Shown here: in pieces, positions 2,967-23,455 of the stretch
How the letters are laid out: each line of letters starts with the position of its first letter
How positions within the stretch are numbered: the stretch's first letter is position 1
DNA from: Laetmonice hystrix
Taxonomy: Eukaryota
Assembly (NCBI GenBank): GCA_965235115.1
Contig: OZ249436.1
Location: 3,784,001 to 3,848,000, forward strand
DNA: 64,000 nt
Direction: 5' to 3'
Notes under the pieces: generated by a model
Told to the model about the DNA's origin: nothing
The model's input: only the letters and a program-made list of their open reading frames with translations
Database searches by the model: none
Program-made: the position numbers and the translations under genes

Positions 2967-4440
2967 GGGACTAGAGCACATGCATGCACACATGTCATGT
3001 CCCGCATGTTTCTATCCATACATTATAAAGGCAACGTTCCGAAACAATCTTACCTGCCATTCCTGACAACGTGATCTTTCAATGTTCGCGGCAACGTTTC
3101 AACTTGCTGAATGACCGTATTCTCGAAATGGCAATCTTTATATAGTTGCGTGCCACGTGACAGAATGCGTCCAGACGAACCAGTCCATGTCAAAGTTCAA
3201 ACGCCTCGATCTTGGTTCTATTTTCGTGACATCCCGTGTCGAGACGCTCGCCCCTTCAAGGACACATTTTGACCAGTTATGTAATGTGTGGTGTGTAGTT
3301 TCGCGACTTGTTCGATGAAATGCCAATATTGGGTCCGTATTTAGCGGGGAAGGGAGTTGACACGAAGGAAACCTGCCTTTTTCAAATAAAAATATGCTCT
3401 TCATGACCTCGGCCTGGCCCTTTGGCTGCGTGCGGCCTCGGGCCGGTGTTAAATTCGTAAAATGTGCCTAGTCCAGAACGCGGGGGTCAGGGGGGGGGGG
3501 AGGGGGTCGGTCGGTCGGTCGGTCGGGGGAACCCCCTTTTGGACGAACCCCTTTCAAAAGTACGACCCTCCTCTTTAAAACTGCAACGTTGATCGTAGAT
3601 CTAGTGCTAGGGCTGCGCACTCAGTTGTTCACATTCGGCCGAATATTCGAGTCGGCCGAATATATCGTCTTCAGTCATGTTCGGCTGATTAAAAGGAACC
3701 AATTGCATCTTATGTTAGAGAAAATCAAACTTTTTCCGATATAGCTACCTACATGTTTACAAATTTATCTCAGACCAGACGCCACAGGAATTACCACGTT
3801 GTGTGATGTTGTTCAACAAACCAGCATTCTTGTTTTCACGGTTAAAATTGTGTACATTCTAGGGGTCAGGGGTGATTAGAATATGTTTTAGTAAATAGCG
3901 AATCTTTCCTTAGAAACACAAGAATATTGTTTATATTGGACAAAAAAAAACTTCAACTCAGTGACTCCCCCCAGAAAAGTGTACCTTGAATTGCTAGGTT
4001 TTGTCAATAATAATAGAATACAAAGTATGACCACTCTAGGGCCCGCCCCCTTACATGCTTGAACACTTTAGGGCCCGTCCCCTTTTCTATTCTTGAACAG
4101 AATGGACGCAGGTTGAAAATCCTTTTTGAAAAATCTTAAACAAATTCAATAGTATCCATACGATATTGAATGTATATCATTATAATCCTAATGAAAAGCC
4201 AGGTTAAGACAATGAATGAAATATAACACATTCGTAGGAAGTTGATCGAGCACGGCATGGTCAGGTACTTTGGCGTCCTCTATCGGAAGGGGCATAAACT
4301 AAAACGGTGGTCGCGGAATTTGGCTCACTATGAACACGGTGGCGACCTCTTACGGAGGGAGTTACTAAGTAGAATGAAGTCACAAGACGTGGGGCTGAAC
4401 GAATTAACGCCATGAGATAAAAAGACAGTGATGTAATTAT

Positions 4441-4675
4441 CCGATTGGGCGAGAACTGCTACCGGCTTCTAATGACTTCACGCCAAATTCGAAAATAGGC
4501 GGCCATGCTGTCAGGGCTATGTAGCGTCTGACACATTTGTCAGGTGTCGACTAGCTCAGAGTGAGCACCCTTTATCGCACCTCACGACCGCCTCTTGCCA
4601 TCAACACTCGCCTCCACTCTGATTCTTTCCCACCATATATTACGGGCACCAGCATTACTTGGAAACAATCATCGT
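4441..4675 (+). promoter_or_regulatory. Putative promoter of the array gene (copy 1, conserved in all copies): inverted CCAAT (ccgattggg 4441-4449), TGACTTCA (4472-4479), TTCGAAA, TATA-like TATATTA (4636-4642), TCAT initiator-like site ~4669
   Basis: Motif matches with TATA-to-initiator spacing of ~30 bp; ATG follows ~55 nt later in good context (acagtcATGG). Confidence 0.55.
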
Positions 4676-4722
4676 TAAGCCTTCAGCTTGCAACAATTCA
4701 CTCAGAATATTTTACTACAGTC

Positions 4723-5043
4723 ATGGCTCCAGTTGATAAACTCATCTCTGAGATGCGCCAGATGGACCGCAAGTTCAAGGTGGCCTGTCAGCAAGTCAAT
4801 CTCCTCAACAACCGTATCAAGGAAATGAAGACCAAACACGACCGTGCCGTCCGCAAGAACCGCCGCTCCTTCCGCTACCACAACCGGCTCCGTCTGGTCA
4901 CCCTGGAGGGGGTGAGGAACATGTTCTGGGAGTACGCCAACAGCCGTGCCGACCTCCTGGACGATATGGAGGACCGCCTCATGGAGGAGTTTCAGGTCGA
5001 CTGGGAGGAGGTGTGCGAGGATGAGGACGACCAGCACCAGTGA
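4723..5043 (+). CDS. Array gene copy 1: 106-aa intronless protein, predicted helical/coiled coil, basic RKNRRSFRY core, acidic C-tail; function unknown
   Basis: ATG in good context and GC3-rich codons contrasting with AT-rich flanks; the GTG-started 54-aa extension in the ORF track runs through the TATA region and is not considered coding. Confidence 0.85.
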   Translation: MAPVDKLISEMRQMDRKFKVACQQVNLLNNRIKEMKTKHDRAVRKNRRSFRYHNRLRLVTLEGVRNMFWEYANSRADLLDDMEDRLMEEFQVDWEEVCEDEDDQHQ

Positions 5044-5073
5044 AGAGAACCATTCTCTCACACAAACCTACAC

Positions 5074-5109
5074 GGCCCTTGTCAGGGCCACACTCTGTCT
5101 CAAAAGAAT
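5074..5109 (+). terminator. Histone-type 3' stem-loop GGCCCT-TGTC-AGGGCC (5074-5089), then ACAC, then purine-rich HDE-like CAAAAGAAT (5101-5109). Intact also at 8777, 11055, 12028, 13002, 13981, 16274, 18570 and 20870
   Basis: 6-bp stem and 4-nt loop matching the metazoan histone consensus GGYYYT-TYTN-ARRRCC-AC except at loop position 2 (G); sits 30 nt after the stop codon. Confidence 0.75.
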
Positions 5110-6132
5110 CGATGATTGTTATTTTGTTTTGACTCCTGTCTTTCATGACTCTTCTCAGCTCCCTTTTAGTTTCCCCAATGAACCATCCTTTGTAATCCAT
5201 GTGGAAACAGAACGAAGTTGTCCGAGAATGATTAAAAAAAAATTCATATCGTGCCTCTATAACAGTACATTAAATGGCATGCCAGTTATATTGCAAGATC
5301 CCTGTACTCCGATATAATTAAATAGGCCTACTTTGAAAAGAAGATAGTAAAAAGTAACCAACTTCGTATCAATTTCTATATTCATGCCTCCCTCTATGTG
5401 TCCCCTTTTCTATTCTTGCACAGTTTCTAGTGCTTTGCCACGCATTGTTGCCTGGCTTTTCTCTTTGCAGGCGGCCTATAGACACTAACACATTAATAAT
5501 GTTCACAAATTCAACAGTATCCATACGATATTGAATCTATATCATATTATAATCCTAATGAAAAGCCAGGTTAAGACAATGAATGAAATATTATCCATTC
5601 GTAGGAAGACAGAGCTGAGCCTTTAGGCGGGTGTAATGCGCTGAGTTGAACGGGCACGGCATGGTCAGGTACTTTGGCGCCCTCTATCAGAAGGGGCGTA
5701 AACTAAAACGGTGGTCGCGGAATTTGGCTCACTATGAACACGGTGGCGACCTCTTACGGAGGGAGTTACTAAGTAGAATGAAGTCACAAGACGTAGGGCT
5801 GAACGAATTAACGCCATGAGATAAAAAGACAGTGATGTAATTATCCGATTGGGCGAGAACTGCTACCTGCTTCTAATGACTTCACGCCAAATTCGAAAAT
5901 AGGCGGCCATGCTGTCAGGGCTACAGCGTCTAACACATTTGTCAGGTGTCAACTGAGTGACTAGCTCAGAGTGAGCACCCTTTATCGCACCTCACGACCG
6001 CCTCTTGCCATCAACACTCACCTCCACACTAATTCTTTCCCACCATATATTACGGGCACCAGCATTACTTGGAAACAACCATCGTTAAGCCTTCAGCTTG
6101 CAACAATTCACTCAGAATATTTTACTACAGTC

Positions 6133-6453
6133 ATGGCTCCAGTTGATAAACTCATCTCTGAGATGCGCCTAATGGACTGCAAGTTCAAGGTGGCCTGTCA
6201 GCAAATCAATCTCCTCAACAAACGTATCAAGGAAATGAAGACCAAATACGACCGTGCCGTCCGCAACAACCGCCGCACCTTCCGCTACCACAACCGCCTC
6301 CGTCTGGTCACCCTGGAGGGAGTGAGGAACATGTTCTGGGAGTACGCCAACAGCCGTGCCGACCTCCTGGACGATATGCAGGACCGCCTCATGGAGGAGT
6401 TTCAGGTGGACTGGGAGGAGGTATGCGAGGATGAGGACGACCAGCACCAGTGA
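6133..6453 (+). CDS. Array gene copy 2 (stem-loop has a mismatch, AGTGCC, at 6484-6499)
   Basis: Intact 106-codon ORF nearly identical to copy 1. Confidence 0.85.
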   Translation: MAPVDKLISEMRLMDCKFKVACQQINLLNKRIKEMKTKYDRAVRNNRRTFRYHNRLRLVTLEGVRNMFWEYANSRADLLDDMQDRLMEEFQVDWEEVCEDEDDQHQ

Positions 6454-6645
6454 AGAAAACCATTCTCTCACACAAACCTACACGGCCCTTGTCAGTGCCA
6501 CACTCTGTCTCAAAAGAATCGATGATTGTTATTTTGTTTTGACTCCTGTCTTTCATGACTCTTCTCAGCTCCCTTTTAGTTCATCCAATGAACTATCCTT
6601 TGTAATCCATGTGGAAACAGAACGAAGTCGTCCGAGAATGATTAA

Positions 6646-7514
6646 AAGAAAAGACCATCGCCAGCCTGTATAGGCCAGGCACACATGCCGTGATATTCTA
6701 AGCAAGTTAAAAAATATTTGAACACAATTGGTGCTCAGATGGTTAAGATATAGGCACTTTAGTGCCGGAGGCTTCTTACAACCTGCTCAGCTGGTTAAGG
6801 CTGCCATTCCTTGGGCTAATCTCAAAGTGCGCATGCTCGCCCTAGGCGAGCATGCGCAGCACGACTGGTCTCCAGTTTGGGAGGAACTGAAAGCTGACGC
6901 ACCTGTTACGTTGATCGATTTGGAAGGCAGCGAACATTGACAGCTTATAAGCAAAATTTGTTAGAACATAGACGAAAACAATCGATAGTGATGAGGAATG
7001 GCTAGGAAAAGCCTACCGATGTCAGGGGACATATCCGGGTAGACACGGATCTGGGCAGCCGTGGGTTTCGGCCGCCTGCATTCGTACCACTTGGATTCGT
7101 GCATGCGTGTGAATGTTGACGGGAGCTTGGCCCCTGAGGCCCGGCTCCACTCTGATTACGACCGCGGGCAATGGCAGTGTCAGCATGGTCAGCACAGACC
7201 TGCTGCGTTTAGTTGTGACTGTGACTGTGACTGTGGGACTGACCCCCGTCGATTTGCCACCCGCCTCGGCTGCCTTTAGCCTAGTATAGCCTAGCAGTGC
7301 AATGCAAAAAATTAGCCCTGGAACGTCACTTCCGGTCAGCCCAATAGCAACAAATGGCTGCGCCGCTGAAGCCAGTGATTTTGACACGGTTGTCATGTTC
7401 AATATATGACTTCTTGGAATAGGGGGACATTTATTTCCAACCACTACTCTGAAAGGTGAGTATATATAGAGGCCTTGCAGCTGTCCAAATGTGATTTTTG
7501 ACTGGTCTTCTCCT
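6646..7514. mobile_element. 869-bp non-autonomous DNA transposon, Kolobok-like. Further copies at 8939-9807, 14143-15011, 16436-17307, 18732-19606 and 21032-21900
   Basis: TTAA on both sides (6642-6645, 7515-7518); imperfect TIR AAGAAAAGACCA / AGGAGAAGACCA (10/12); empty single-TTAA site in unit 1 at 5232-5235. Confidence 0.8.
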
Positions 7515-8425
7515 TTAAAAAAGAATTTCATACCGTGCCTCTATAACAGTAGGCCTACATTAAATGGCATGCCAGTTATATTGCAAGAATTTAGATCCCT
7601 GTACTCCGATATAATTAAATATTTTGAAAAGAAGATAGTAAAAAGTAACCAACTTCGTATCAATTTCTATATTCTTGCCTCCCTCTATGTGCCCCCTTTT
7701 CTATTCTTGGACAGTTTCTAGTGCTTTGCCACGCATTGTTGCCTGGCTTTTCTCTTTGCAGGCGGCCTAGGCTATAGACACAAACACATTAATAATGTTC
7801 ACAAATTCAACAGTATCCATACGATTTTGAATCTATATCATATTATAATCCTAATGAAAAGCAAGGTTAAGACAATGAATGAAATATAACAATTCGTGGG
7901 AAGATAGAGCTGATAGCTTTTAGGCGGGTGTAATGCGCTGAGTTGATCGAGCACGGCATGGTCAGGTACTTTGGCGTCCTCTATCGGAAGGGGCGTAAAC
8001 TTGATGGTCGCGGAATTTGGCTCAATATGAACACGGTGGCGACCTCTTACGGAGGGAGTTACTAAGTAGACTGAAGTCACAAGACGTGGGGCTGAACGAA
8101 TTAACGCCATGAGATAAAAAGACAGTGATGTAATTATCCGATTGGGCGAGAACTGCTACCGGTTTCTAATGACTTCACGCCAAATTCGAAAATAGGCGGC
8201 CATGCTGTCAGGGCTACAGCGTCTAACACATTTGTCAGGTGTCAACTGAGTGACTAGCTCAGAGTGAGCACCCTTTATCGCACCTCACGACCGCCTCTTG
8301 CCATCAACACTCACCTCCACACTGATTCTTTCCCACCATATATTACGGGCACCAGCATTACTTGGAAACAATCATCGTTAAGCCTTCAGCTTGCAACAAT
8401 TCACTCAGAATATTTTACTACAGTC

Positions 8426-8746
8426 ATGGCTCCAGTTGATAAACTCATCTCTGAGATGCGCCAGATGGACTGCAAGTTCAAGGTGGCCTGTCAGCAAATC
8501 AATCTCCTCAACAAACGTATCAAGGAAATGAAGACCAAATACGACCGTGCCGTCTGCAACAACCGCCGCACCTTCCGCTACCACAACCGCCTCCGTCTGG
8601 TCACCCTGGAGGGAGGGAGGAACATGTCCTGGGAGTACGCCAACAGCCGTGCCGACCTCCTGGACGATATGCAGGACCGCCTCATGGAGGAGTTTCAGGT
8701 GGACTGGGAGGAGGTATGCGAGGATGAGGACGACCAGCACCAGTGA
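8426..8746 (+). CDS. Array gene copy 3 (LEGGRNMSWEY variant)
   Basis: Intact ORF with two substitutions in an otherwise invariant motif. Confidence 0.75.
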   Translation: MAPVDKLISEMRQMDCKFKVACQQINLLNKRIKEMKTKYDRAVCNNRRTFRYHNRLRLVTLEGGRNMSWEYANSRADLLDDMQDRLMEEFQVDWEEVCEDEDDQHQ

Positions 8747-10703
8747 AGAGAACCATTCTCTCACACAAACCTACACGGCCCTTGTCAGGGCCACACTCTG
8801 TCTCAAAAGAATCGATGATTGTTATTTTGTTTTGACTCCTGTCTTTCATGACTCTTCTCAGCTCCCTTTTAGTTCCCCCAATGAACCATCCTTTGTAATC
8901 CATGTGGAAACAGAACGAAGTCGTCCGAGAATGATTAAAAGAAAAGACCATCGCCAGTCTGTATAGGCCAGGCACACATGCCGTGATATTCTAAGCAAGT
9001 TAAAAAATATTTGAACACAATTGGTGCTCAGATGGTTAAGATATAGGCACTTTAGTGCCGGAGGCTTCTTACAACCTGCTCAGCTGGTTAAGGCTGCCAT
9101 TCCTTGGGCTAATCTCAAAGTGCGCATGCTCGCCCTAGGCGAGCATGCGCAGCACGACTGCTCTCCAGTTTAGGAGGAACTGAAAGCTGACGCACCTGTT
9201 ACGTTGATCGATTTGGAAGGCAGCGAACATTGACAGCTTATAAGCAAAATTTGTTAGAACATAGACGAAAACCATCGATAGTGATGAGGAATGGCTAGGA
9301 AAAGCCTACCGATGTCAGGGGACATATCCGGGTAGACACGGATCTGGGCAGCCGTGGGTTTCGGCCGCCTGCATTCGTACCACTTGGATTCGTGCATGCG
9401 TGTGAATGTTGACGGGAGCTTGGCCCCTGAGGCCCGGCTCCACTCTGACTACGACCGCGGGCAATGGCAGTGTCAGCATGGTCAGCACAGACCTGCTGCG
9501 TTTAGTTGTGACTGTGACTGTGACTGTGGAACTGACCCCCGTCGATTTGCCACCCGCCTCGGCTGCCTTTAGCCTAGTATAGCCTAGCCGTGCCATGCAA
9601 AAAATTAGCCCTGGAACGTCACTTCCGGTCAGCCCAATAGCAACAAATGGCTGCGCTGCTGAAGCCAGTGATTTTGACACGGTTGTCATGTTCAATATAT
9701 GACTTCTTGGAATAGGGGGACATTTATTTCCAACCACTACTCTGAAAGGTGAGTATATATAGAGGCCTTGCAGCTGTCCAAATGTGATTTTTGACTGGTC
9801 TTCTCCTTTAAAAAAGAATTTCATACCGTGCCTCTATAACAGTAGGCCTACATTAAATGGCATGCCAGTTATATTGCAAGAATTTAGATCCCTGTACTCC
9901 GATATAATTAAATATTTTGAAAAGAAGATAGTAAAAAGTAACCAACTTCGTATCAATTTCTATATTCTTGCCTCCCTCTATGTGCCCCCTTTTCTATTCT
10001 TGGACAGTTTCTAGTGCTTTGCCACGCATTGTTGCCTGGCTTTTCTCTTTGCAGGCGGCCTATAGACACGAACACATTAATAATGTTCACAAATTCAACA
10101 GTATCCATACGATTTTGAATCTATATCATATTATAATCCTAATGAAAAGCAAGGTTAAGACAATGAATGAAATATAACACATTCGTGGGAAGATAGAGCT
10201 GATAGCTTTTAGGCGGGTGTAATGCGCCGAGTTGATCGAGCACGGCATGGTCAGGTACTTTGGCGTCCTCTATCGGAAGGGGCGTAAACCTGATGGTCGC
10301 GGAATTTGGCTCACTATGAACACGGTGGCGACCTCTTACGGAGGGAGTACTAAGTAGACGTAGGGCTGAACGAATTAACGCCATGAGATAAAAAGACAGC
10401 TGGTGATGTAATTATCCGATTGGGCGAGAACTGCTACCGGCTTCTAATGACTTCACGCCAAATTCGAAAATAGGCGGCCATGCTGTCAGGGCTACAGCGT
10501 CTAACACATTTGTCAGGTGTCAACTGAGTGACTAGCTCAGAGTGAGCACCCTTTATCGCACCTCACGACCGCCTCTTGCCATCAACACTCACCTCCACAC
10601 TGATTCTTTCCCACCATATATTACGGGCACCAGCATTACTTGGAAACAATCATCGTTCAGCTTTCAGCTTGCAACAATTCACTCAGAATATTTTACTACA
10701 GTC

Positions 10704-11024
10704 ATGGCTCCAGCTGATAAACTCATCTCTGAGATGCGCCAGATGGACTGCAAGTTCAAGGTGGCCTGTCAGCAAATCAATCTCCTCAACAAACGTATCA
10801 AGGAAATGAATACCAAATACGACCGTGCCGTCTGCAAGAACCGCCGCTCCTTCCGCTACCACAACCGCCTCCGTCTGGTCACCCTGGAGGGAGTGAGGAA
10901 CATGTTCTGGGAGTATGCCAACAGCCGTGCCGACCTCCTGGACGATATCCAGGACCGCCTCATGGAGGAGTTTCAGGTCGACTGGGAGCAGGTGTGCGAG
11001 GGCAATGACGACCAGCACCAGTGA
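10704..11024 (+). CDS. Array gene copy 4 (short unit)
   Basis: Intact 106-codon ORF. Confidence 0.85.
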   Translation: MAPADKLISEMRQMDCKFKVACQQINLLNKRIKEMNTKYDRAVCKNRRSFRYHNRLRLVTLEGVRNMFWEYANSRADLLDDIQDRLMEEFQVDWEQVCEGNDDQHQ

Positions 11025-11676
11025 AGAGAACCATTCTCTCAGACAAACCTACACGGCCCTTGTCAGGGCCACACTCTGTCTCAAAAGAATCGATGATTGT
11101 TATTTTGTTTTGACTCCTGTCTTTCATGACTCTTCTCAGCTCCCTTTTAGTTCCCCCAATGAACCATCCTTTGTATTCCATGCAGTAATGCGGGTGTAAT
11201 GCGCCGAGTTGATCGAGCACGGCATGGTCAGGTACTTTGGCGTCCTCTATCGGAAGGGGCGTAAACTTGATGGTCGCGGAATTTGGCTCACTATGAACAC
11301 GGTGGCGACCTCTTACGGAGGGAGTACTAAGTAGACGTAGGGCTGAACAATTTAACGCCATGAGATAAAAAGACAGTGATGTAATTATCCGATTGGGCGA
11401 GAACTGCTACCGGCTTCTAGTGACTTCACGCCAAATTCGAAAATAGGCGGCCATGCTGGCAGGGCTACAGCGTCTAACACATTTGTCAGGTGTCAACTGA
11501 GCGACTAGCTCAGAGTGAGCACCCTTTATCGCACCTCACGACCGCCTCTTGCCATCAACACTCACCTCCACACTGATTCTTTCCCACCATATATTACGGG
11601 CACCAGGATTACTTGGAAACAATCATCGCTAAGCCTTCAGCTTGCAACATTTCACTCAGAATATTTTACTACAGTC

Positions 11677-11997
11677 ATGGCTCCAGCTGATAAACTCATC
11701 TCTGAGATGCGCCAGATGGACCGCAAGTTCAAGGTGGCCTGTCAGCAAATCAATCTCCTCAACAAACGTATCAAGGAAATGAAAACCAAATACGACCGTG
11801 CCGTCCGCAAGAACCGCCGCTCCTTCCGCTACCACAACCGCCTCCGTCTGGTCACCCTGGAGGGAGTGAGGAACATGTTCTGGGAGTATGCCAACAGCCG
11901 TGCCGACCTCCTGGACGATATCCAGGACCGCCTCATGGAGGAGTTTCAGGTCGACTGGGAGCAGGTGTGCGAGGGCAATGACGACCAGCACCAGTGA
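11677..11997 (+). CDS. Array gene copy 5 (short unit)
   Basis: Intact 106-codon ORF. Confidence 0.85.
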   Translation: MAPADKLISEMRQMDRKFKVACQQINLLNKRIKEMKTKYDRAVRKNRRSFRYHNRLRLVTLEGVRNMFWEYANSRADLLDDIQDRLMEEFQVDWEQVCEGNDDQHQ

Positions 11998-12650
11998 AGA
12001 GAACCATTCTCTCAGACAAACCTACACGGCCCTTGTCAGGGCCACACTCTGTCTCAAAAGAATCGATGATTGTTATTTTGTTTTGACTCCTGTCTTTCAT
12101 GACTCTTCTCAGCTCCCTTTTAGTTCCCCCAATGAACCATCCTTTGTATTCCATGCAGTAATGCGGGTGTAATGCGCCGAGTTGATCGAGCACGGCATGG
12201 TCAGGTACTTTGGCGTCCTCTATCGGAAGGGGCGTAAACTTGATGGTCGCGGAATTTGGCTCACTATGAACACGGTGGCGACCTCTTACGGAGGGAGTAC
12301 TAAGTAGACGTAGGGCTGAACAATTTAACGCCATGAGATAAAAAGACAGTGATGTAATTATCCGATTGGGCGAGAACTGCTACCGGCTTCTAGTGACTTC
12401 ACGCCAAATTCGAAAATAGGCGGCCATGCTGGCAGGGCTACAGCGTCTTAACACATTTGTCAGGTGTCAACTGAGCGACTAGCTCAGAGTGAGCACGCTT
12501 TATCGCACCTCACGACCGCCTCTTGCCATCAACACTCACCTCCACACTGATTCTTTCCCACCATATATTACGGGCACCAGGATTACTTGGAAACAATCAT
12601 CGCTAAGCCTTCAGCTTGCAACATTTCACTCAGAATATTTTACTACAGTC

Positions 12651-12971
12651 ATGGCTCCAGCTGATAAACTCATCTCTGAGATGCGCCAGATGGACCGCAA
12701 GTTCAAGGTGGCCTGTCAGCAAATCAATCTCCTCAACAAACGTATCAAGGAAATGAAAATCAAATACGACCGTGCCGTCCGCAAGAACCGCCGCTCCTTC
12801 CGCTACCACAACCGCCTCCGTCTGGTCACCCTGGAGGGAGTGAGGAACATGTTCTGGGAGTATGCCAACAGCCGTGCCGACCTCCTGGACGATATGCAGG
12901 GCCGCCTCATGGAGGAGTTTCAGGTCGACTGGGAGGAGGTGTGCGAGGGCAATGACGACCAGCACCAGTGA
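12651..12971 (+). CDS. Array gene copy 6 (short unit)
   Basis: Intact 106-codon ORF. Confidence 0.85.
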   Translation: MAPADKLISEMRQMDRKFKVACQQINLLNKRIKEMKIKYDRAVRKNRRSFRYHNRLRLVTLEGVRNMFWEYANSRADLLDDMQGRLMEEFQVDWEEVCEGNDDQHQ

Positions 12972-13629
12972 AGAGAACCATTCTCTCACACAAACCTACA
13001 CGGCCCTTGTCAGGGCCACACTCTGTCTCAAAAGAATTGATGATTGTTATTTTGTTTTGACTCCTGTCTTTCATGACTCTTCTCAGCTCCCTTTTAGTTC
13101 CCCCAATGAACCATCCTTTGTATTCCATGCAGTAATGCGGGTGTAATGCGCCGAGTTGATCGAGCACGGCATGGTCAGGTACTTTGGCGTCCTCTATCGG
13201 AAGGGGCGTAAACTTGATGGTCGCGGAATTTGGCTCACTATGAACACGGTGGCGACCTCTTACGGAGGGAGTACTAAGTAGACGTAGGGCTGAACAATTT
13301 AACGCCATGAGATAAAAAGACAGTGATGTAATTATCCGATTGGGCGAGAACTGCTATCGGCTTCTAATGACTTCACGCCAAATTCGAAAATAGGCGACCA
13401 TGCTGGCAGGGCTACAGCGTCTAGATCTAACACATTTGTCAGGTGTCAACTGAGCGACTAGCTCAGAGTGAGCACCCTTTATTGCACCTCACGACCGCCT
13501 CTTGACATCAACACTCACCTCCACACTGATTCTTTCCCACCATATATTACGGGCACCAGGATTACTTGGAAACAATCATCGTTCAGCTATCAGCTTGCAA
13601 CAATTCACTCAGAATATTTTACTACAATC

Positions 13630-13950
13630 ATGGCTCCAGTTGATAAACTCATCTCTGAGATGCGCCAGATGGACCGCAAGTTCAAGGTGGCCTGTCAGCA
13701 AATCAATCTCCTCAACAAACGTATCAAGGAAATGAATACCAAATACGACCGTGCCGTCCGCAAGAACCGCCGCTCCTTCCGCTACCACAACCGCCTCCGT
13801 CTGGTCACCCTGGAGGGAGTGAGGAACATGTTCTGGGAGTACGCCAACAGTCGTGCCGACCTCCTGGACGATATGGAGGACCGCCTAATGGAGGAGTTTC
13901 AGGTGGACTGGGAGGAGGTATGCGAGGATGAGGACGACCAGCACCAGTGA
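13630..13950 (+). CDS. Array gene copy 7
   Basis: Intact 106-codon ORF. Confidence 0.85.
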   Translation: MAPVDKLISEMRQMDRKFKVACQQINLLNKRIKEMNTKYDRAVRKNRRSFRYHNRLRLVTLEGVRNMFWEYANSRADLLDDMEDRLMEEFQVDWEEVCEDEDDQHQ

Positions 13951-15923
13951 AGAAAACCATTCTCTCACACAAACCTACACGGCCCTTGTCAGGGCCACAC
14001 TCTGTCTCAAAAGAATCGATGATTGTTATTTTGTTTTGACTCCTGTCTTTCATGACTCTTCTCAGCTCCCTTTTAGTTCCCCCAATGAACCATCCTTTGT
14101 AATCCATGTGGAAACAGAACGAAGTCATCCGAGAATGATTAAAAGAAAAGACCATCGCCAGCCTGTATAGGCCAGGCACACATGACGTGATATTCTAAGC
14201 AAGTTAAAAAATATTTGAACACAATTGGTGCTCAGATGGTTAAGATATAGGCACTTTAGTGCCGGAGGCTTCTTACAACCTGCTCAGCTGGTTAAGGCTG
14301 CCATTCCTTGGGCTAATCTCAAAGTGCGCATGCTCGCCTTAGGCGAGCATGCGCAGCACGACTGCTCTCCGGTTTGGGAGGAACTGAAAGCTGACGCACC
14401 TGTTACGTTGATCGATTTGGAAGGCAGCGAACATTGACAGCTTATAAGCAAAATTTGTTAGAACATAGACGAAAACCACCGATAGTGATGAGGAATGGCT
14501 AGGAAAAGCCTACCGATGTCAGGGGACATATCCGGGTAGACACGGATCTGGGCAGCCATGGGTTTCGGCCGCCTGCATTCGTACCACTTGGATTCGTGCA
14601 TGCGTGTGAATGTTGACGGGAGCTTGGCCCCTGAGGCCCGGCTCCACTCTGACTACGACCGCGGGCAATGGCAGTGTCATCATGGTCAGCACAGACCTGC
14701 TGCGTTTAGTTGTGACTGTGACTGTGACTGTGGAACTGACCCCCGTCGATTTGCCACCCGCCTCGGCTGCCTTTAGCCTAGTATAGCCTAGCCGTGCCAT
14801 GCAAAAAATTAGCCCTGGAACGTCACTTCCGGTCAGCCCAATAGCAACAAATGGCTGCGCTGCTGAAGCCAGTGATTTTGACACGGTTGTCATGTTCAAT
14901 ATATGACTTCTTGGAATAGGGGGACATTTATTTCCAACCACTACTCTGAAAGGTGAGTATATATAGAGGCCTTGCAGCTGTCCAAATGTGATTTTTGACT
15001 GGTCTTCTCCTTTAAAAAAGAATTTCATACCGTGCCTCTATAACAGTAGGCCTACATTAAATGGCATGCCAGTTATATTGCAAGAATTTAGATCCCTGTA
15101 CTCCGATATAATTAAATATTTTGAAAAGAAGATAGTAAAAAGTAACCAACTTCGTATCAATTTCTATATTCTTGCCTCCCTCTATGTGCCCCCTTTTCTA
15201 TTCTTGGACAGTTTCTAGTGCTTGGCCACGCATTGTTGCCTGGCTTTTCTCTTTGCAGGCGGCCTAGGCTATAGACACAAACACATTAATAATGTTCACA
15301 AATTCAACAGTATCCATACGATTTTGAATCTATATCATATTATAATCCTAATGAAAAGCAAGGTTAAGACAATGAATGAAATATAACACTTTCGTGGGAA
15401 GACAGAGCTGATAGCTTTTAGGCGGGTGTAATGCGCTGAGTTGATCGAGCACGGCATGGTCAGGTACTTTGGCGTCCTCTATCGGAAGGGGCGTAAACTT
15501 GATGGTCGCGGAATTTGGCTCACTATGAACACGGTGGCGACCTCTTACGGAGGGAGTTACTAAGTAGACTGAAGTCACAAGACGTAGGGCTGAACGAATT
15601 AACGGCATGAGATAAAAAGACAGTGATGTAATTATCCGATTGGGCGAGAACTGCTACCGGCTTCTGATGACTTCACGCCAAATTCGAAAATAGGCGGCCA
15701 TGCTGTCAGGGCTACAGCATCTAACACATTTGTCAGGTGTCAACTGAGTGACTAGCTCAGAGTGAGCACCCTTTATCGCACCTCACGACCGCCTCTTGCC
15801 ATCAACACTCACCTCCACACTAATTCTTTCCCACCATATATTACGGGCACCAGCATTACTTGGAAACAATCATCATTAAGCCTTCAGCTTGCAACAATTC
15901 ACTCAGAATATTTTACTACAGTC

Positions 15924-16243
15924 ATGGCTCCAGTTGATAAACTCATCTCTGAGATGCGCCAGATGGACTGCAAGTTCAAGGTGGCCTGTCAGCAAATCAA
16001 TCTCCTCAACAAACGTATCAAGGAAATGAAGACCAAATACGACCGTGCCGTCCGCAACAACCGCCGCACCTTCCGCTACCACAACCGCCTCCGTCTGGTC
16101 ACCCTGGAGGGAGTGAGGAACATGTTCTGGGAGTACACCAACAGCCGTGCCGACCTCCTGGACGATATGCAGGACGCCTCATGGAGGAGTTTCAGGTGGA
16201 CTGGGAGGAGGTATGCGAGGATGAGGACGACCAGCACCAGTGC
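15924..16243 (+). pseudogene. Array gene copy 8, frameshifted: 1-bp deletion near 16175 (aggacgcctc vs aggaccgcctc) and original stop changed TGA>TGC; the shifted frame reads to 16463
   Basis: Comparison with sibling copies; an assembly error is possible. Confidence 0.7.
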
Positions 16244-18218
16244 AGAAAACCATTCTCTCACACAAACCTACACGGCCCTTGTCAGGGCCACACTCTGTCT
16301 CAAAAGAATCGATGATTGTTATTTTGTTTTGACTCCTGTCTTTCATGACTCTTCTCAGCTCCCTTTTAATTCCCCCAATGAACCATCCTTTGTAATCCAT
16401 GTGGAAACAGAACGAAGTCGTCCGAGAATGATTAAAAGAAAAGACCATCGCCAGCCTGTATAGGCCAGTCACACATGCCGTGATATCTAAGCAAGTTAAA
16501 AAATATTTGAACACAATTGGTGCTCAGATGGTTAAGATATAGGCACTTTAGTGCCGGAGGCTTCTTACAACCTGCTCAGCTGGTTAAGGCTGCCATTCCT
16601 TGGGCTAATCTCAAAGTGCGCATGCTCGCCCGCCCTAGGCGAGCATGCGCAGCACGACTGCTCTCCAGTTTGGGAGGAACTGAAAGCTGACGCACCTGTT
16701 ACGTTGATCGATTTGGAAGGCAGCGAACATTGACAGCTTATAAGCAAAATTTGTTAGAACATAGACGAAAACCATCGATAGTGATGAGGAATGGCTAGGA
16801 AAAGCCTACCGATGTCAGGGGACATATCCGGGTAGACACGGATCTGGGCAGCCGTGGGTTTCGGCCGCCTGCATTCGTCCCACTTGGATTCGTGCATGCG
16901 TGTGAATGTTGACGGGAGCTTGGCCCCTGAGGCCCGGCTCCACTCTGACTACGACCGCGGGCAATGGCAGTGTCAGCATGGTCAGCACAGACCTGCTGCG
17001 TTTAGTTGTGACTGTGACTGTGACTGTGGGACTGACCCCCGTCGATTTGCCACCCGCCTCGGCTGCCTTTAGCCTAGTATAGCCTAGCAGTGCAATGCAA
17101 AAAATTAGCCCTGGAACGTCACTTCCGGTCAGCCCAATAGCAACAAATGGCTGCGCCGCTGAAGCCAGTGATTTTGACACGGTTGTCATGTTCAATATAT
17201 GACTTCTTGGAATAGGGGGACATTTATTTCCAACCACTACTCTGAAAGGTGAGTATATATAGAGGCCTTGCAGCTGTCCAAATGTGATTTTTGACTGGTC
17301 TTCTCCTTTAAAAAAGAATTTCATACCGTGCCTCTATAACACTAGGCCTACATTAAATGGCATGCCAGTTATATTGCAAGAATTTAGATCCCTGTACTCC
17401 GATATAATTAAATATTTTGAAAAGAAGATAGTAAAAAGTAACCAACTTCGTATCAATTTCTATATTCTTGCCTCCCTCTATGTGCCCCCTTTTCTATTCT
17501 TGGACAGTTTCTAGTGCTTGGCCACGCATTGTTGCCTGGCTTTTCTCTTTGCAGGCGGCCTAGGCTATAGACACAAACACATTAATAATGTTCACAAATT
17601 CAACAGTATCCATACGATTTTGAATCTATATCATATTATAATCCTAATGAAAAGCAAGGTTAAGACAATGAATGAAATATAACACATTCGTGGGAAGACA
17701 GAGCTGATAGCTTTTAGGCGGGTGTAATGCGCTGAGTTGATCGAGCACGGCATGGTCAGGTACTTTGGCGTCCTCTATCGGAAGGGGCGTAAACTTGATG
17801 GTCGCGGAATTTGGCTCACTATGAACACGGTGGCGACCTCTTACGGAGGGAGTTACTAAGTAGAATGAAGTCACAAGACGTAGGGCTGAACGAATTAACG
17901 CCATGAGATAAAAAGACAGTGATGTAATTATCCGATTGGGCGAGAACTGCTACCGGCTTCTAATGACTTCACGCCAAATTTGAAAATAGGCGGCCATGCT
18001 GTCAGGGCTACAGCGTCTAACACATTTGTCAGGTGTCAACTGAGTGACTAGCTCAGAGTGAGCACCCTTTTCGCACCTCACGACCGCCTCTTGCCATCAA
18101 CACTCACCTCTACACTAATTCTTTCCCACCATATATTACGGGCACCAGCATTACTTGGAAACTATCATCGTTAAGCCTTCAGCTTGCAACAATTCACTCA
18201 GAATATTTTACTACAGTC

Positions 18219-18539
18219 ATGGCTCCAGTTGATAAACTCATCTCTGAGATGCGCCAGATGGACTGCAAGTTTAAGGTGGCCTGTCAGCAAATGAATCTCC
18301 TCAACAAACGTATCAAGGAAATGAAGACCAAATACGACCGTGCCGTCCGCAACAACCGCCGCACCTTCCGCTACCACAACCGCCTCCGTCTGGTCACCCT
18401 GGAGGGAGTGAGGAACATGTTCTGGGAGTACGCCAACAGCCGTGCCGACCTCCTGGACGATATGCAGGACCGCCTCATGGAGGAGTTTCAGGTGGACTGG
18501 GAGGAGGTATGCGAGGATGAGGACGACCAGCACCAGTGA
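18219..18539 (+). CDS. Array gene copy 9
   Basis: Intact 106-codon ORF; a 1-bp deletion upstream breaks the GTG extension, which supports the ATG start. Confidence 0.85.
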   Translation: MAPVDKLISEMRQMDCKFKVACQQMNLLNKRIKEMKTKYDRAVRNNRRTFRYHNRLRLVTLEGVRNMFWEYANSRADLLDDMQDRLMEEFQVDWEEVCEDEDDQHQ

Positions 18540-20518
18540 AGAAAACCATTCTCTCACACAAACCTACACGGCCCTTGTCAGGGCCACACTCTGTCTCAAA
18601 AGAATCGATGATTGTTATTTTGTTTTGACTCCTGTCTTTCATGACTCTTCTCAGCTCCCTTTTAGTTCCCCCAATGAACCATCCTTTGTAATCCATGTGG
18701 AAACAGAACGAAGTCGTCCGAGAATGATTAAAAGAAAAGACCATCGCCAGCCTGTATAGGCCAGGCACACATGCCGTGATATTCTAAGCAAGTTAAAAAA
18801 TATTTGAACACAATTGGTGCTCAGATGGTTAAGATATAGGCACTTTAGTGCCGGAGGCTTCTTACAACCTGCTCAGCTGGTTAAGGCTGCCATTCCTTGG
18901 GCTAATCTCAAAGTGCGCATGCTCGCCCTAGGCGAGCATGCGCAGCACGACTGCTCTCCAGTTTGGGAGGAACTGAAAGCTGACGCACCTGTTACGTTGA
19001 TCGATTTGGAAGGCAGCGAACATTGACAGCTTATAAGCATAATTTGTTAGAACATAGACGAAAACCATCGATAGTGATGAGGAATGGCTAGGAAAAGCCT
19101 ACCGATGTCAGGGGACATATCCGGGTAGACACGGATCTGGGCAGCCATGGGTTTCGGCCGCCTGCATTCGTCCCACTTGGATTCGTGCATGCGTGTGAAT
19201 GTTGACGGGAGCTTGGCCCCTGAGGCCCGGCTCCACTCTGACTACGACCGCGGGCAATGGCAGTGTCAGCATGGTCAGCACAGACCTGCTGCGTTTAGTT
19301 GTGACTGTGACTGTGACTGTGACTGTGGAACTGACCCCCGTCGATTTGCCACCCGCCTCGGCTGCCTTTAGCCTAGTATAGCCTAGCCGTGCCATGCAAA
19401 AAATTAGCCCTGGAACGTCACTTCCGGTCAGCCCAATAGCAACAAATGGCTGCGCTGCTGAAGCCAGTGATTTTGACACGGTTGTCATGTTCAATATATG
19501 ACTTCTTGGAATAGGGGGACATTTATTTCCAACCACTACTCTGAAAGGTGAGTATATATAGAGGCCTTGCAGCTGTCCAAATGTGATTTTTGACTGGTCT
19601 TCTCCTTTGAAAAAGAATTTCATACCGTGCCTCTATAACAGTAGGCCTACATTAAATGGCATGCCAGTTATATTGCAAGAATTTAGATCCCTGTACTCCG
19701 ATATAATTAAATATTTTGAAAAGAAGATAGTAAAAAGTAACCAACTTCGTATCAATTTCTATATTCTTGCCTCCCTCTATGTGCCCCCTTTTCTATTCTT
19801 GGACAGTTTCTAGTGCTTGGCCACGCATTGTTGCCTGGCTTTTCTCTTTGCAGGCGGCCTAGGCTATAGACACAAACACATTAATAATGTTCACAAATTC
19901 AACAGTATCCATACGATTTTGAATCTATATCATATTATAATCCTAATGAAAAGCAAGGTTAAGACAATGAATGAAATATAACACTTTCGTGGGAAGACAG
20001 AGCTGATAGCTTTTAGGCGGGTGTAATGCGCTGAGTTGATCGAGCACGGCATGGTCAGGTACTTTGGCGTCCTCTATCGGAAGGGGCGTAAACTTGATGG
20101 TCGCGGAATTTGGCTCACTATGAACACGGTGGCGACCTCTTACGGAGGGAGTTACTAAGTAGAATGAAGTCACAAGACGTAGGGCTGAACGAATTAACGC
20201 CATGAGATAAAAAGACAGTGATGTAATTATCCGATTGGGCGAGAACTGCTACCGGCTTCTAATGACTTCACGCCAAATTCGAAAATAGGCGGCCATGCTG
20301 TCAGGGCTACAGCATCTAACACATTTGTCAGGTGTCAACTGAGTGACTAGCTCAGAGTGAGCACCCTTTATCGCACCTCACGACCGCCTCTTGCCATCAA
20401 CACTCACCTCCACACTAATTCTTTCCCACCATATATTACGGGCACCAGCATTACTTGGAAACAACCATCGTTAAGCCTTCAGCTTGCAACAATTCACTCA
20501 GAATATTTTACTACAGTC

Positions 20519-20839
20519 ATGGCTCCAGTTGATAAACTCATCTCTGAGATGCGCCAGATGGACTGCAAGTTCAAGGTGGCCTGTCAGCAAATCAATCTCC
20601 TCAACAAACGTATCAAGGAAATGAAGACCAAATACGACCGTGCCGTCCGCAACAACCGCCGCACCTTCCGCTACCACAACCGCCTCCGTCTGGTCACCCT
20701 GGAGGGAGTGAGGAACATGTTCTGGGAGTACGCCAACAGCCGTGCCGACCTCCTGGACGATATGCAGGACCGCCTCATGGAGGAGTTTCAGGTGGACTGG
20801 GAGGAGGTATGCGAGGATGAGGACGACCAGCACCAGTGA
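20519..20839 (+). CDS. Array gene copy 10
   Basis: Intact 106-codon ORF. Confidence 0.85.
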   Translation: MAPVDKLISEMRQMDCKFKVACQQINLLNKRIKEMKTKYDRAVRNNRRTFRYHNRLRLVTLEGVRNMFWEYANSRADLLDDMQDRLMEEFQVDWEEVCEDEDDQHQ

Positions 20840-22798
20840 AGAAAACCATTCTCTCACACAAACCTACACGGCCCTTGTCAGGGCCACACTCTGTCTCAAA
20901 AGAATCGATGATTGTTATTTTGTTTTGACTCCTGTCTTTCATGACTCTTCTCAGCTCCCTTTTAGTTCCCCCAATGAACCATCCTTTGTAATCCATGTGG
21001 AAACAGAACGAAGTCGTCCGAGAATGATTAAAAGAAAAGACCATCGCCAGCCTGTATAGGCCAGGCACACATGCCGTAATATTCTAAGCAAGTTAAAAAA
21101 TATTTGAACACAATTGGTGCTCAGATGGTTAAGATATAGGCACTTTAGTGCCGGAGGCTTCTTACAACCTGCTCAGCTGGTTAAGGCTGCCATTCCTTGG
21201 GCTAATCTCAAAGTGCGCATGCTCGCCCTAGGCGAGCATGCGCAGCACGACTGCTCTCCAGTTTGGGAGGAACTGAAAGCTGACGCACCTGTTACGTTGA
21301 TCGATTTGGAAGGCAGCGAACATTGACAGCTTATAAGCAAAATTTGTTAGAACATAGACGAAAACCATCGATAGTGATGAGGAATGGCTAGGAAAAGCCT
21401 ACCGATGTCAGGGGACATATCCGGGTAGACACGGATCTGGGCAGCCGTGGGTTTCGGCCGCCTGCATTCGTACCACTTGGATTCGTGCATGCGTGTGAAT
21501 GTTGACGGGAGCTTGGCCCCTGAGGCCCGGCTCCACTCTGACTACGACCGCGGGCAATGGCAGTGTCAGCATGGTCAGCACAGACCTGCTGCGTTTAGTT
21601 GTGACTGTGACTGTGACTGTGGAACTGACCCCCGTCGATTTGCCACCCGCCTCGGCTGCCTTTAGCCTAGTATAGCCTAGTCGTGCCATGCAAAAAATTA
21701 GCCCTGGAACGTCACTTCCGGTCAGCCCAATAGCAACAAATGGCTGCGCTGCTGAAGCCAGTGATTTTGACACGGTTGTCATGTTCAATATATGACTTCT
21801 TGGAATAGGGGGACATTTATTTCCAACCACTACTCTGAAAGGTGAGTATATATAGAGGCCTTGCAACTGTCCAAATGTGTTTTTTGACTGGTCTTCTCCT
21901 TTAAAAAAGAATTTCATGCCGTGCCTCTATAAAAGTAGGCCTACATTAAATGGCATGCCAGTTATATTGCAAGAATTTAGATCCCTGTACTCCGATATAA
22001 TTAAATATTTTGAAAAGAAGATAGTAAAAAGTAACCAACTTCGTATCAATTTCTATATTCTTGCCTCCCTCTATGTGCCCCCTTTTCTATTCTTGGACAG
22101 TTTCTAGTGCTTGGCCACGCATTGTTGCCTGGCTTTTCTCTTTGCAGGCGGCCTATAGACACGAACACATTAGGCCTAATAATGTTCACAAATTCAACAG
22201 TATCCATACGATTTTGAATCTATATCATATTATAATCCTAATGAAAAGCAAGGTTAAGACAATGAATGAAATATAACACATTCGTGGGAAGACAGAGCTG
22301 ATAGCTTTTAGGCGGGTGTAATGCGCTGAGTTGATCGAGCACGGCATGGTCAGGTACTTTGGCGTCCTCTATCGGAAGGGGCGTAAACTTGATGGTCGCG
22401 GAATTTGGCTCACTATGAACACGGTGGCGACCTCTTACGGAGGGAGTACTAAGTAGACGTAGGGCTGAACGAATTAACGCCATGAGATAAAAAGACAGTG
22501 ATGTAATTATCCGATTGGGCGAGAACTGCTACCGGCTTCTAATGACTTCACGCCAAATTCGAAAATAGGCGGCCATGCTGTCAGGGCTACAGCGTCTAAC
22601 ACATTTGTCAGGTGTCAACTGAGTGACTAGCTCAGAGTGAGCACCCTTTATCCCACCTCACGACCGCCTCTTGCCATCAACACTCACCTCCACACTGATT
22701 CTTTCCCACCATATATTACGGGCACCAGCATAACTTGGAAACAATCATCGTTAAGCTTTCAGCTTGCAACAATTCACTCAGAATATTTTACTACAGTC

Positions 22799-23119
22799 AT
22801 GGCTCCAGTTGATAAACTCATCTCTGAGATGCGCCAGATGGACCGCAAGTTCAAGGTGGCCTGTCAGCAAATCAATCTCCTCAACAAACGTATCAAGGAA
22901 ATGAATACCAAATACGACCGTGCCGTCCGCAACAACCGCCGCACCTTCCGCTACCACAACCGCCTCCGTCTGGTCACCCTAGAGGGAGTGAGGAACATGT
23001 TCTGGGAGTACGCCAACAGCCGTGCCGACCTCCTGGACGATATGCAGGACCGCCTCATGGAGGAGTTTCAGGTCGACTGGGAGGAGGTGTGCGAGGGCAA
23101 TGACGACCAGCACCAGTGA
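22799..23119 (+). CDS. Array gene copy 11 (ORF intact; 5' half of the stem-loop deleted)
   Basis: 3' UTR reads aaacctac-tcagggccaca and lacks acggcccttg. Confidence 0.75.
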   Translation: MAPVDKLISEMRQMDRKFKVACQQINLLNKRIKEMNTKYDRAVRNNRRTFRYHNRLRLVTLEGVRNMFWEYANSRADLLDDMQDRLMEEFQVDWEEVCEGNDDQHQ

Positions 23120-23455
23120 AGAAAACCATTCTCTCACACAAACCTACTCAGGGCCACACTCTGTCTCAAAAGAATCGATGATTGTTATTTTGTTTTGACT
23201 CCTGTCTTTCATGACTCTTCTCAGCTCCCTTTTAGTTCCCCCAATGAACCATCCTTTGTTATCCATGCAGTAGGCCAAATTCCGCGACCATCAAGTTTAC
23301 GCCCCTTCCGATAGAGGACGCCAAAGTACCTGACCATGCATGAGTGCCCGCAAAAGAGATGTCAAGATTTTAGTGCAGGCTGTTAAATACAGATGTCGCT
23401 TTCGTTTGAGCTAAATGGAACTCTTCAAAGCCTGTTGGGAGGTAAGAAAGGATTG

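Follow-up and report, generated by a model that had tools for sequence, protein, structure and literature searches.

What does a short gene that resembles no named protein gain from the 3′ end of a histone gene, and why is it repeated so many times? The question is raised by the window, by which we mean the whole 64,000-nucleotide stretch analysed (C1:3784001-3848000 of a 627-Mb, 35-contig animal genome). The original prediction described an arrayed 106-residue orphan protein, a helical hairpin with a basic turn and an acidic tail, and suggested that it is associated with nucleic acids, chromatin or histones and needed at high dose.

An array of eleven gene units

The gene first noticed, copy 1, is an intronless ATG-to-TGA ORF of 106 residues at window positions 4723-5043 on the plus strand, encoding a hairpin protein with a basic core and an acidic tail. 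It heads 11 tandem copies that span 4723-23119 and share 94.7-96.9% DNA identity with it, and the array of 11 gene units as a whole, delimited by BLAST and by reading the ORFs, occupies 4140-23267 (plus strand). A TATA-like box, ATATATT (4635-4641, plus strand), lies about 88 nt 5′ of the copy 1 ATG and recurs at the same place in 11/11 copies, in each case as a consensus match without a chance control. On the other side of the gene, a stem-loop, GGCCCT-TGTC-AGGGCC followed by ACAC (5074-5089, plus strand), begins 30 nt 3′ of the stop codon, beyond the segment to which the original prediction was confined. It is succeeded after 12 nt by AAAAGAATCGAT, an element resembling a histone downstream element (HDE) (5102-5113, plus strand), which is identical to the HDE of the genome's own H2B gene.

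The remaining copies repeat this layout on the same strand: copy 2 at 6133-6453 (hairpin 6484-6499 with one broken pair, HDE at 6512), copy 3 at 8426-8746 (hairpin 8777-8792, HDE 8805; the conserved motif LEGVRNMF has two changes), copy 4 at 10704-11024 (hairpin 11055-11070, HDE 11083), copy 5 at 11677-11997 (hairpin 12028-12043, HDE 12056), copy 6 at 12651-12971 (hairpin 13002-13017, HDE 13030), copy 7 at 13630-13950 (hairpin 13981-13996, HDE 14009), copy 9 at 18219-18539 (hairpin 18570-18585, HDE 18598) and copy 10 at 20519-20839 (hairpin 20870-20885, HDE 20898). Copy 8 (15924-16242) is frameshifted near codon 84, and its frame stays open to 16463, across its own hairpin at 16274-16289; copy 11 (22799-23119) has lost the 5′ arm of its hairpin and retains its HDE at 23168. 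The frame is thus intact in 10 of the 11 copies and the hairpin is full in nine, with one broken pair and one lost 5′ arm in the others, while the HDE is found in 11/11; damage to frame or hairpin affects three of the 11.

The ATG-to-ATG spacings (1410, 2293, 2278, 973, 974, 979, 2294, 2295, 2300 and 2280) correspond to units of about 0.97, 1.4 or 2.3 kb. An interspersed high-copy repeat of about 873 bp, recognized from depth and from gaps in the BLAST alignments (6641-7515, unstranded), occurs in the six long units and is missing from the short ones; its depth is 100,000-480,000, whereas the spacer stands at about 1,000, and one joint bypasses it. It holds an antisense ORF of 169 residues. 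We rejected these antisense ORFs and further overlapping ORFs of 80-133 residues as genes, since their positions fall within the inserted repeat or across the gene; neither kind had a Pfam match where tested. At the right end of the array stands an inverted copy, 66-70 bp long, of a piece of the unit's upstream region (23274-23339). Farther along the window, the minus strand carries exons of an ATAD5 (ELG1) gene at 34270-44402 (E = 1e-11 to human ATAD5), with many minisatellites in its introns and flanks.

A helical hairpin with a basic core and an acidic tail

With an alignment of 102 sequences, AlphaFold2 models the 106-residue protein at a mean pLDDT of 95.7 with helices at residues 3-44, 48-90 and 94-104. 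In this prediction, long antiparallel helices form a hairpin whose core is basic and whose tail is acidic. The charge counts agree with this: copy 1 has a net charge of +11 over residues 1-72 and of -13 over residues 73-106, and 102/102 aligned homologues have a net positive core (median +7), and 92% have a negative tail (median -7). Hence, the architecture proposed originally is borne out, with corrections of detail. The N-terminal helix is present, but the stretch quoted for it, ..QQINLLNKRIKEMKTKYDRA, is the common form of the array (for example, the copy at 11677), copy 1 itself reading ..QQVNLLNNRIKEMKTKHDRA. The second helix is likewise present, but starts at R48, inside the Arg/aromatic cluster, and not at LEGVRN. 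The N-terminus is polar and free of hydrophobic stretches, as read from the sequence without a predictor, in keeping with the claimed lack of a signal peptide. Residues F18, Q24, N29, R38, A42, R55, E62, R65 and Y71 are kept in at least 90% of the 102 sequences, and the family as a whole is distinguished by the motif KFxxACxQxxLLN..RYxRA..RSFRYxLRLRL..EGVRNMFYEYA. Aromatic residues also occur in the acidic tail, as judged from sequence.

No family described so far accommodates the protein. As had been anticipated, it contains no recognized domain: Pfam searches reached the cut-off for no family either with the 106-residue protein (best E = 0.012) or with the 102 aligned members, which also lack any histone or H1 match. 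PHROGs, a sequence search of the PDB and a wide VIA-align search were equally without a specific match. Structurally, Foldseek found no match in the PDB at E≤0.001, and the confident hairpin model retrieved nothing but generic coiled-coil hairpins, all alike at a TM-score of about 0.7, Z of 9-11 (up to 10.8) and identity of 4-17%. Well-known antiparallel coiled-coil hairpins, such as the ESCRT-III/PspA/Vipp1 core, prefoldin, the ING N-terminal domain and SMC arms, likewise consist of two long helices, but they are without sequence signal to the family and their Z-scores fall in the range that any helical hairpin gives. With ESCRT-III/PspA, the plain hairpin alone aligns (E≥0.2), and Snf7/PspA is absent among the top Pfam families. 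A relationship to ING (PF12998) was considered and gave no signal: it too is absent among the top Pfam families; ING3 figures among the generic fold matches with a Z of 10.2, and hhalign gave a probability below 1%, a weak test in that two single ING exon stretches served as targets. A complex prediction with the genome's own H2A-H2B gave no answer, scoring 0.00 in a run with the alignment unused and no folded controls. The ESM Atlas offers leads only: the query retrieves fungal clusters of low recognition, and the homologue P0204 a mollusc cluster (0.76).

A large spiralian family under purifying selection

The high copy number claimed for the gene holds well beyond the window: the genome contains at least 151 family matches (150 of 521 candidates having been scored), with arrays at three places on C1, on C19 (about 70 copies of a 1.33-kb unit), C6, C5 and C8, and with dispersed paralogues whose identity falls to 37%. 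L070, a more divergent member that was found from the side of the RNA signal, matches at E = 1e-15 to 1e-20. On C8 (19.420-19.431 Mb), the array L039 repeats a 3.2-kb unit with two different family members on opposite strands, each followed by a hairpin.

The label "orphan" stands in the sense that the family is unnamed, and fails in that it is large and present in bivalves, a gastropod and annelids. A profile search among 1.84 billion representatives recovered 868 clusters at 50% identity, those with names being from molluscs and annelids; as most of the matches are nameless, the range may be wider. The named relatives match by profile at E-values to 1e-26 or better and share the family motif. 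They comprise Mya arenaria MAR_007173, MAR_017186-8 and MAR_017287, Patella caerulea SNE40_012698, Lamellibrachia satsuma LSAT2_008627, an unnamed product of Mytilus edulis and Capitella teleta CAPTEDRAFT_195377, in which the C-terminal part matches the family. All are hypothetical proteins with neither an assigned function nor a Pfam family. The Mya models consist of the domain repeated head to tail, and probably represent tandem arrays joined by gene prediction. Longer forms of the protein (five matches among 8000 candidates scored) contain no transposase or histone domain and are read as gene-model fusions.

The claim that the 106-residue protein is the product of a real gene under purifying selection is sustained by its comparison with six deep paralogues, which gives dN/dS values of 0.16-0.38 (Nei-Gojobori, codons 1-95) at a dS of 1-3.6, that is, near saturation. 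Against five closer paralogues the ratio is 0.42-1.06, the top value coming from one close pair with 15 differences, and among the ten intact window copies pN/pS is 0.53. In a tree of 56 rows and 95 columns with many open forks, L049, a paralogue from the same genome that lacks the hairpin, groups with the named mollusc proteins (97/99), and close cross-species pairs are formed by L036 with P0207 and L032 with P0006. This tree is compatible both with an ancestral hairpin and with more than one gain.

Histone-type 3′ ends across the family

The histone-like gene layout and 3′ end described above recur widely in the family. At copy 1, the hairpin matches the Rfam Histone3 model (RF00032) with 27.2 bits and E = 1.2e-4; the gathering score being 34, it appears only at an E-value threshold, and a search of the window at the gathering threshold returns nothing. 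Its stem is present in both the MFE and the centroid structures. A hairpin lies within 330 nt of the end of 71 of 76 distinct family ORFs, 69 of which also have an HDE-like purine-rich element; these 76 are the ORFs in the fetched stretches, about half of the 151 matches and many of them array copies. By contrast, the same loose hairpin test was positive in 4/242 control windows. The hairpin is also retained behind paralogues with about 40% identity or less. The five misses are two frames that read through their own hairpin, the deleted copy 11, a frameshifted copy of L037 and L049, the last being the only true absence. The coding region is a continuous ORF in all hairpin-bearing copies, though introns could still exist in the 5′ UTR.

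The same association emerges when the genome is searched for the RNA signal. Of the 14 best Histone3 matches in a whole-genome Rfam search (75 candidates scored), 10 stand directly behind family ORFs, all above the gathering score. A strict pattern of hairpin plus HDE matches the genome 442 times, and its reverse 0 times; histone genes and other loci are among the first 100 matches listed. We aligned 28 non-redundant hairpins (22 of the 44 distinct ones from this genome and six from other organisms), in which 99.4% of the stem cells pair, a figure partly built in, since the alignment took in only loci where a hairpin had been found. The third stem pair switches between C-G (19), U-A (7) and U-G (2), as it also does in the histone genes of this genome. 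Loop position 3 is U in 28/28 and position 1 in 27/28, whereas position 2 takes all four bases and is G in the window copies. Passages of PMC4604434 report that L1 and L3 determine SLBP binding, and that L2C binds like the wild type and mainly affects 3′hExo; G at L2 is absent from the mutants described in those passages. The loop variation of the family, as far as its sequences go, thus follows the pattern that SLBP reads.

TATA-like boxes, scored without a chance control, precede 17/23 family genes, 60-130 nt 5′ of the ATG, and 4/4 core histone genes. AATAAA or ATTAAA occurs within 400 nt in 5/23 family genes and 2/4 core histone genes. A poly(A) form of the copy 1 message is possible, because ATTAAA hexamers occur 190-276 nt 3′ of its stop.

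Some members have more elaborate 3′ regions: L048 (8553-8740), L032, L034 and L036 have a series of two to six hairpins, the HDE standing past the last one. In L049 (2791-3190; C8:18.856 Mb), the family gene is followed by a second ORF of 101 residues and then by GGCTTT-CAAA-AAAGCC, whose loop has no U at position 3, with an exact HDE.

The genome's own histone genes and processing machinery

The H2A, H2B, H3, H4 and H1 genes of this genome end in a hairpin and an HDE as the family genes do. Hairpins of the form GGYCCT-YCTC-AGGRCC or GGCTCT-TCTC-AGAGCC are found in the core histone unit (L053) and the H1 arrays (L051 and L052), and the HDEs are AAAAGAATCGAT in H2B, AAAAGAGTCGAT in H3 and H4, GAAAGATTCGAT in H2A and AGAAGTGTCGAT in H1. 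The window HDE is the H2B one exactly, and that of H3 and H4 differs from it by one base. The 3′ flank of H4 is nearly identical to that of the family paralogue L031. None of the histone repeat units examined (L053, L051, L052) contains a family ORF.

As for the machinery, the genome has an SLBP gene. A U7 snRNA was not located: the best Rfam RF00066 match has E = 1.4, three sequence patterns matched at chance level, and none of the 12 candidates inspected combines a convincing Sm site with a hairpin.

The histone genes themselves show some unusual arrangements. H1 forms pure tandem arrays (C20:6.82-6.93 Mb and C4:36.09-36.20 Mb) apart from the four-gene core units. Many further arrays of divergent or broken ORFs, H2B-like or otherwise of the histone fold, occur on C3 (18.3-20.6 Mb and 37.7 Mb), C4 (14.8 Mb), C8 and C10 (28.0 Mb), including L074 and L075; those that were read retain the hairpin and HDE.

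Homologues from other organisms

Thirteen homologous loci with 43-55% identity were recovered from other organisms in metagenome contigs. Six of them have a Histone3 match (26-34.4 bits) 38-105 nt from the stop, followed at the same distance by a different HDE, AAAAAGA(A/G)ATAACTTG. As these six come from two assemblies and form one clade in the tree, they count as one independent lineage. We predict that the histone HDE of the organism behind L059-L066 would be AAAAAGA(A/G)AUAACUUG, as for the family genes there. Five other loci have no hairpin within 700 nt of the stop, and two are uninformative, L064 being cut off and L062, which has a GT-AG intron, running off its contig. Hence, given these five loci, L049 and the intron of L062, the hairpin is not universal in the family. 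The related hairpin-less homologues L057 and L058 each carry, roughly equally far past the stop, a 3′ UTR hairpin that is longer and of another kind.

Histone-type signals behind other loci

The histone-type signal also occurs outside the histones and the family. A Helentron subfamily (L072, 1-925 and 1513-1555, C3:624300-626000; also at 8.79 Mb and 8.84 Mb on C3) combines a Rep-helicase-endonuclease frame of 2700-2850 residues with a canonical histone hairpin and HDE, and its transposon message may use the histone route. At L071 (C2:51.208-51.218 Mb and 51.370-51.382 Mb), an unrelated orphan ORF of 185 residues, without a Pfam match, is arrayed with a period of about 2.2 kb; 33 nt separate its stop from a hairpin and HDE. 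Dispersed repeats filled with minisatellites (L067, C1:29.317 Mb; L068, C2:11.955 Mb; L069, C18:7.141 Mb; and about seven further sites) terminate in an identical histone hairpin above the Rfam gathering score, without an evident gene, and are possibly non-autonomous elements. As the signal is found behind the Helentron subfamily and some non-coding repeats, it does not by itself prove a working gene.

A proposed histone-style gene family for a non-histone protein

The DNA-level evidence for histone-style family genes is strong. We propose, with a probability of roughly 0.7, that the family consists of genes that are built in the style of replication-dependent histone genes but have a non-histone protein as product, and whose messages would be processed by SLBP and U7 without polyadenylation. 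In the histone-message pathway as set out in passages of PMC10730174, SLBP and U7 act in a cut 4-5 nt past the hairpin. By analogy, SLBP would bind the hairpin behind the family ORFs, the U7 snRNP would pair with the HDE, and the RNA would be cut 4-5 nt 3′ of the hairpin and remain without a poly(A) tail. The message would then be made, translated and destroyed together with the histone messages, in S phase or from a maternal store and in the cleavage stages, and the arrays would supply the dose of the protein. The hairpin-less and spliced members would be replication-independent counterparts, as is the case for variant histones.

The charge layout and gene architecture might suit a bulk nuclear protein, for which a role in chromatin is possible and is offered tentatively. 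In such a role, the basic and aromatic hairpin (R38 Y39 x R41 A42, R48-R57, E62 G63 x R65 and Y71) would grip DNA or an acidic chromatin surface, and the variable acidic tail would buffer histones or mask the basic face.

The same 3′ signal could in principle have come with a mobile element, the family being cargo of a transposon or virus, for instance an accessory gene of a Helentron that captured a histone 3′ end, and its arrays the debris of its spread. The genome has about 100 long Helentron frames, one subfamily of which carries the hairpin and HDE about 590 nt past its helicase-endonuclease ORF, and the family paralogues are many, dispersed and very divergent. Helentrons have been described as capturing histone gene fragments (passages of PMC4067079), and the subfamily seen here likewise ends in a histone signal. 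However, the tests run placed no family gene inside or close to such elements: the positions tested lie at least 470 kb from the nearest Helentron helicase end among the matches listed, both lists being partial; the 7 kb upstream of the hairpin-bearing Helentron contain no family ORF; and five other Helentron 3′ flanks (1.5 kb) are without the hairpin. Nor did the match to a transposon or viral accessory ORF that would have overturned the original prediction turn up, there being no relatives in IMG/VR contigs or prokaryote genomes, and none among predicted viral structures at E≤0.001, invertebrate DNA viruses being thinly sampled in such collections. The spliced member L062 and the close cross-species pairs (L036/P0207 and L032/P0006) also speak against cargo, and we consider this origin unlikely. 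Less likely again is an origin of the 3′ signal as an inert copy taken from a histone gene, with the array a decaying amplification of one gene. The three damaged copies, the G at loop position 2 and the pN/pS within the array would suit such decay, and the likeness of the L031 and H4 flanks could reflect recent conversion. Against this, the hairpin and HDE persist behind paralogues separated by a dS of 1-3.6, amid UTR sequence that is otherwise unalignable, and the hairpin recurs behind homologues in another lineage with an HDE of its own. Inert sequence would have decayed over such distances, and we consider this reading very unlikely.

If the signal is used, its use might still be uncoupled from S phase, as in messages stored in oocytes, confined to germ cells or made in dual stem-loop and poly(A) forms, and the product might be a coiled-coil adaptor, an RNA binder or a membrane or filament protein and not a chromatin component. 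The AATAAA or ATTAAA downstream of 5/23 genes and the existence of hairpin-less members would fit such other timing, and the fold matches to ESCRT-III/PspA, prefoldin, an SMC arm and plain hairpins (Z up to 10.8) such other roles. However, at 4-17% identity no fold match is outstanding, and the family-wide basic core and acidic tail, together with the histone-like dose, would fit a nuclear role better; we regard this combination as rather unlikely. Histone-style genes for a non-histone protein remain our preferred reading. Going further, and with more doubt, one could see in them an old, unrecognised spiralian class of non-histone mRNAs processed by SLBP and U7. The family would be its main member and a sixth bulk chromatin protein, with replication-coupled stem-loop arrays and replication-independent spliced variants, and other orphan arrays and the Helentron subfamily would use the same route for S-phase timing. 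Such a class would have gone unnoticed until now because RNA-seq of poly(A)-selected libraries and gene prediction would drop or merge the family genes.

Implications

For human cells, PMC4604434 states that no cellular mRNAs other than the replication-dependent histone mRNAs lack poly(A) or are targets of SLBP. If our proposal is right, a selected family of over 150 copies that keeps the hairpin among distant paralogues and also in another lineage would plainly break this histone-only rule, and one would have to ask by what path non-histone loci come to U7 and the histone locus body. No non-histone family with a histone 3′ end was met in the full-text literature, including passages of PMC13525598 and PMC3597683, subscription journals being sparse in it. 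A 2026 preprint on the evolution of the machinery (10.64898/2026.10.14.759114) contains no non-histone, annelid or mollusc terms. The machinery itself is already known, and the novelty hinges on the RNA being processed as proposed. The family also points to a conserved, probably abundant, unannotated protein of molluscs and annelids.

Comparison with replication-dependent histone genes

The closest known parallel to the family lies in the replication-dependent histone genes. Like them, the family genes are short and intronless, have a TATA-like promoter and form tandem arrays. The two share a 6-bp stem, a 4-nt loop with U at L1 and L3 and A/C-rich flanks, and the purine-rich HDE of the family, 12-14 nt downstream, matches those of the genome's own histones. 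In contrast, the family product is a two-helix hairpin without a histone fold or any histone or H1 Pfam match, and it evolves far faster than histones. By the defining feature of replication-dependent histone genes, a histone product, the family genes hence fall outside that class. Beyond the single gene, the spliced or hairpin-less relatives parallel the variant histones, and the head-to-head paired array L039 recalls paired histone genes.
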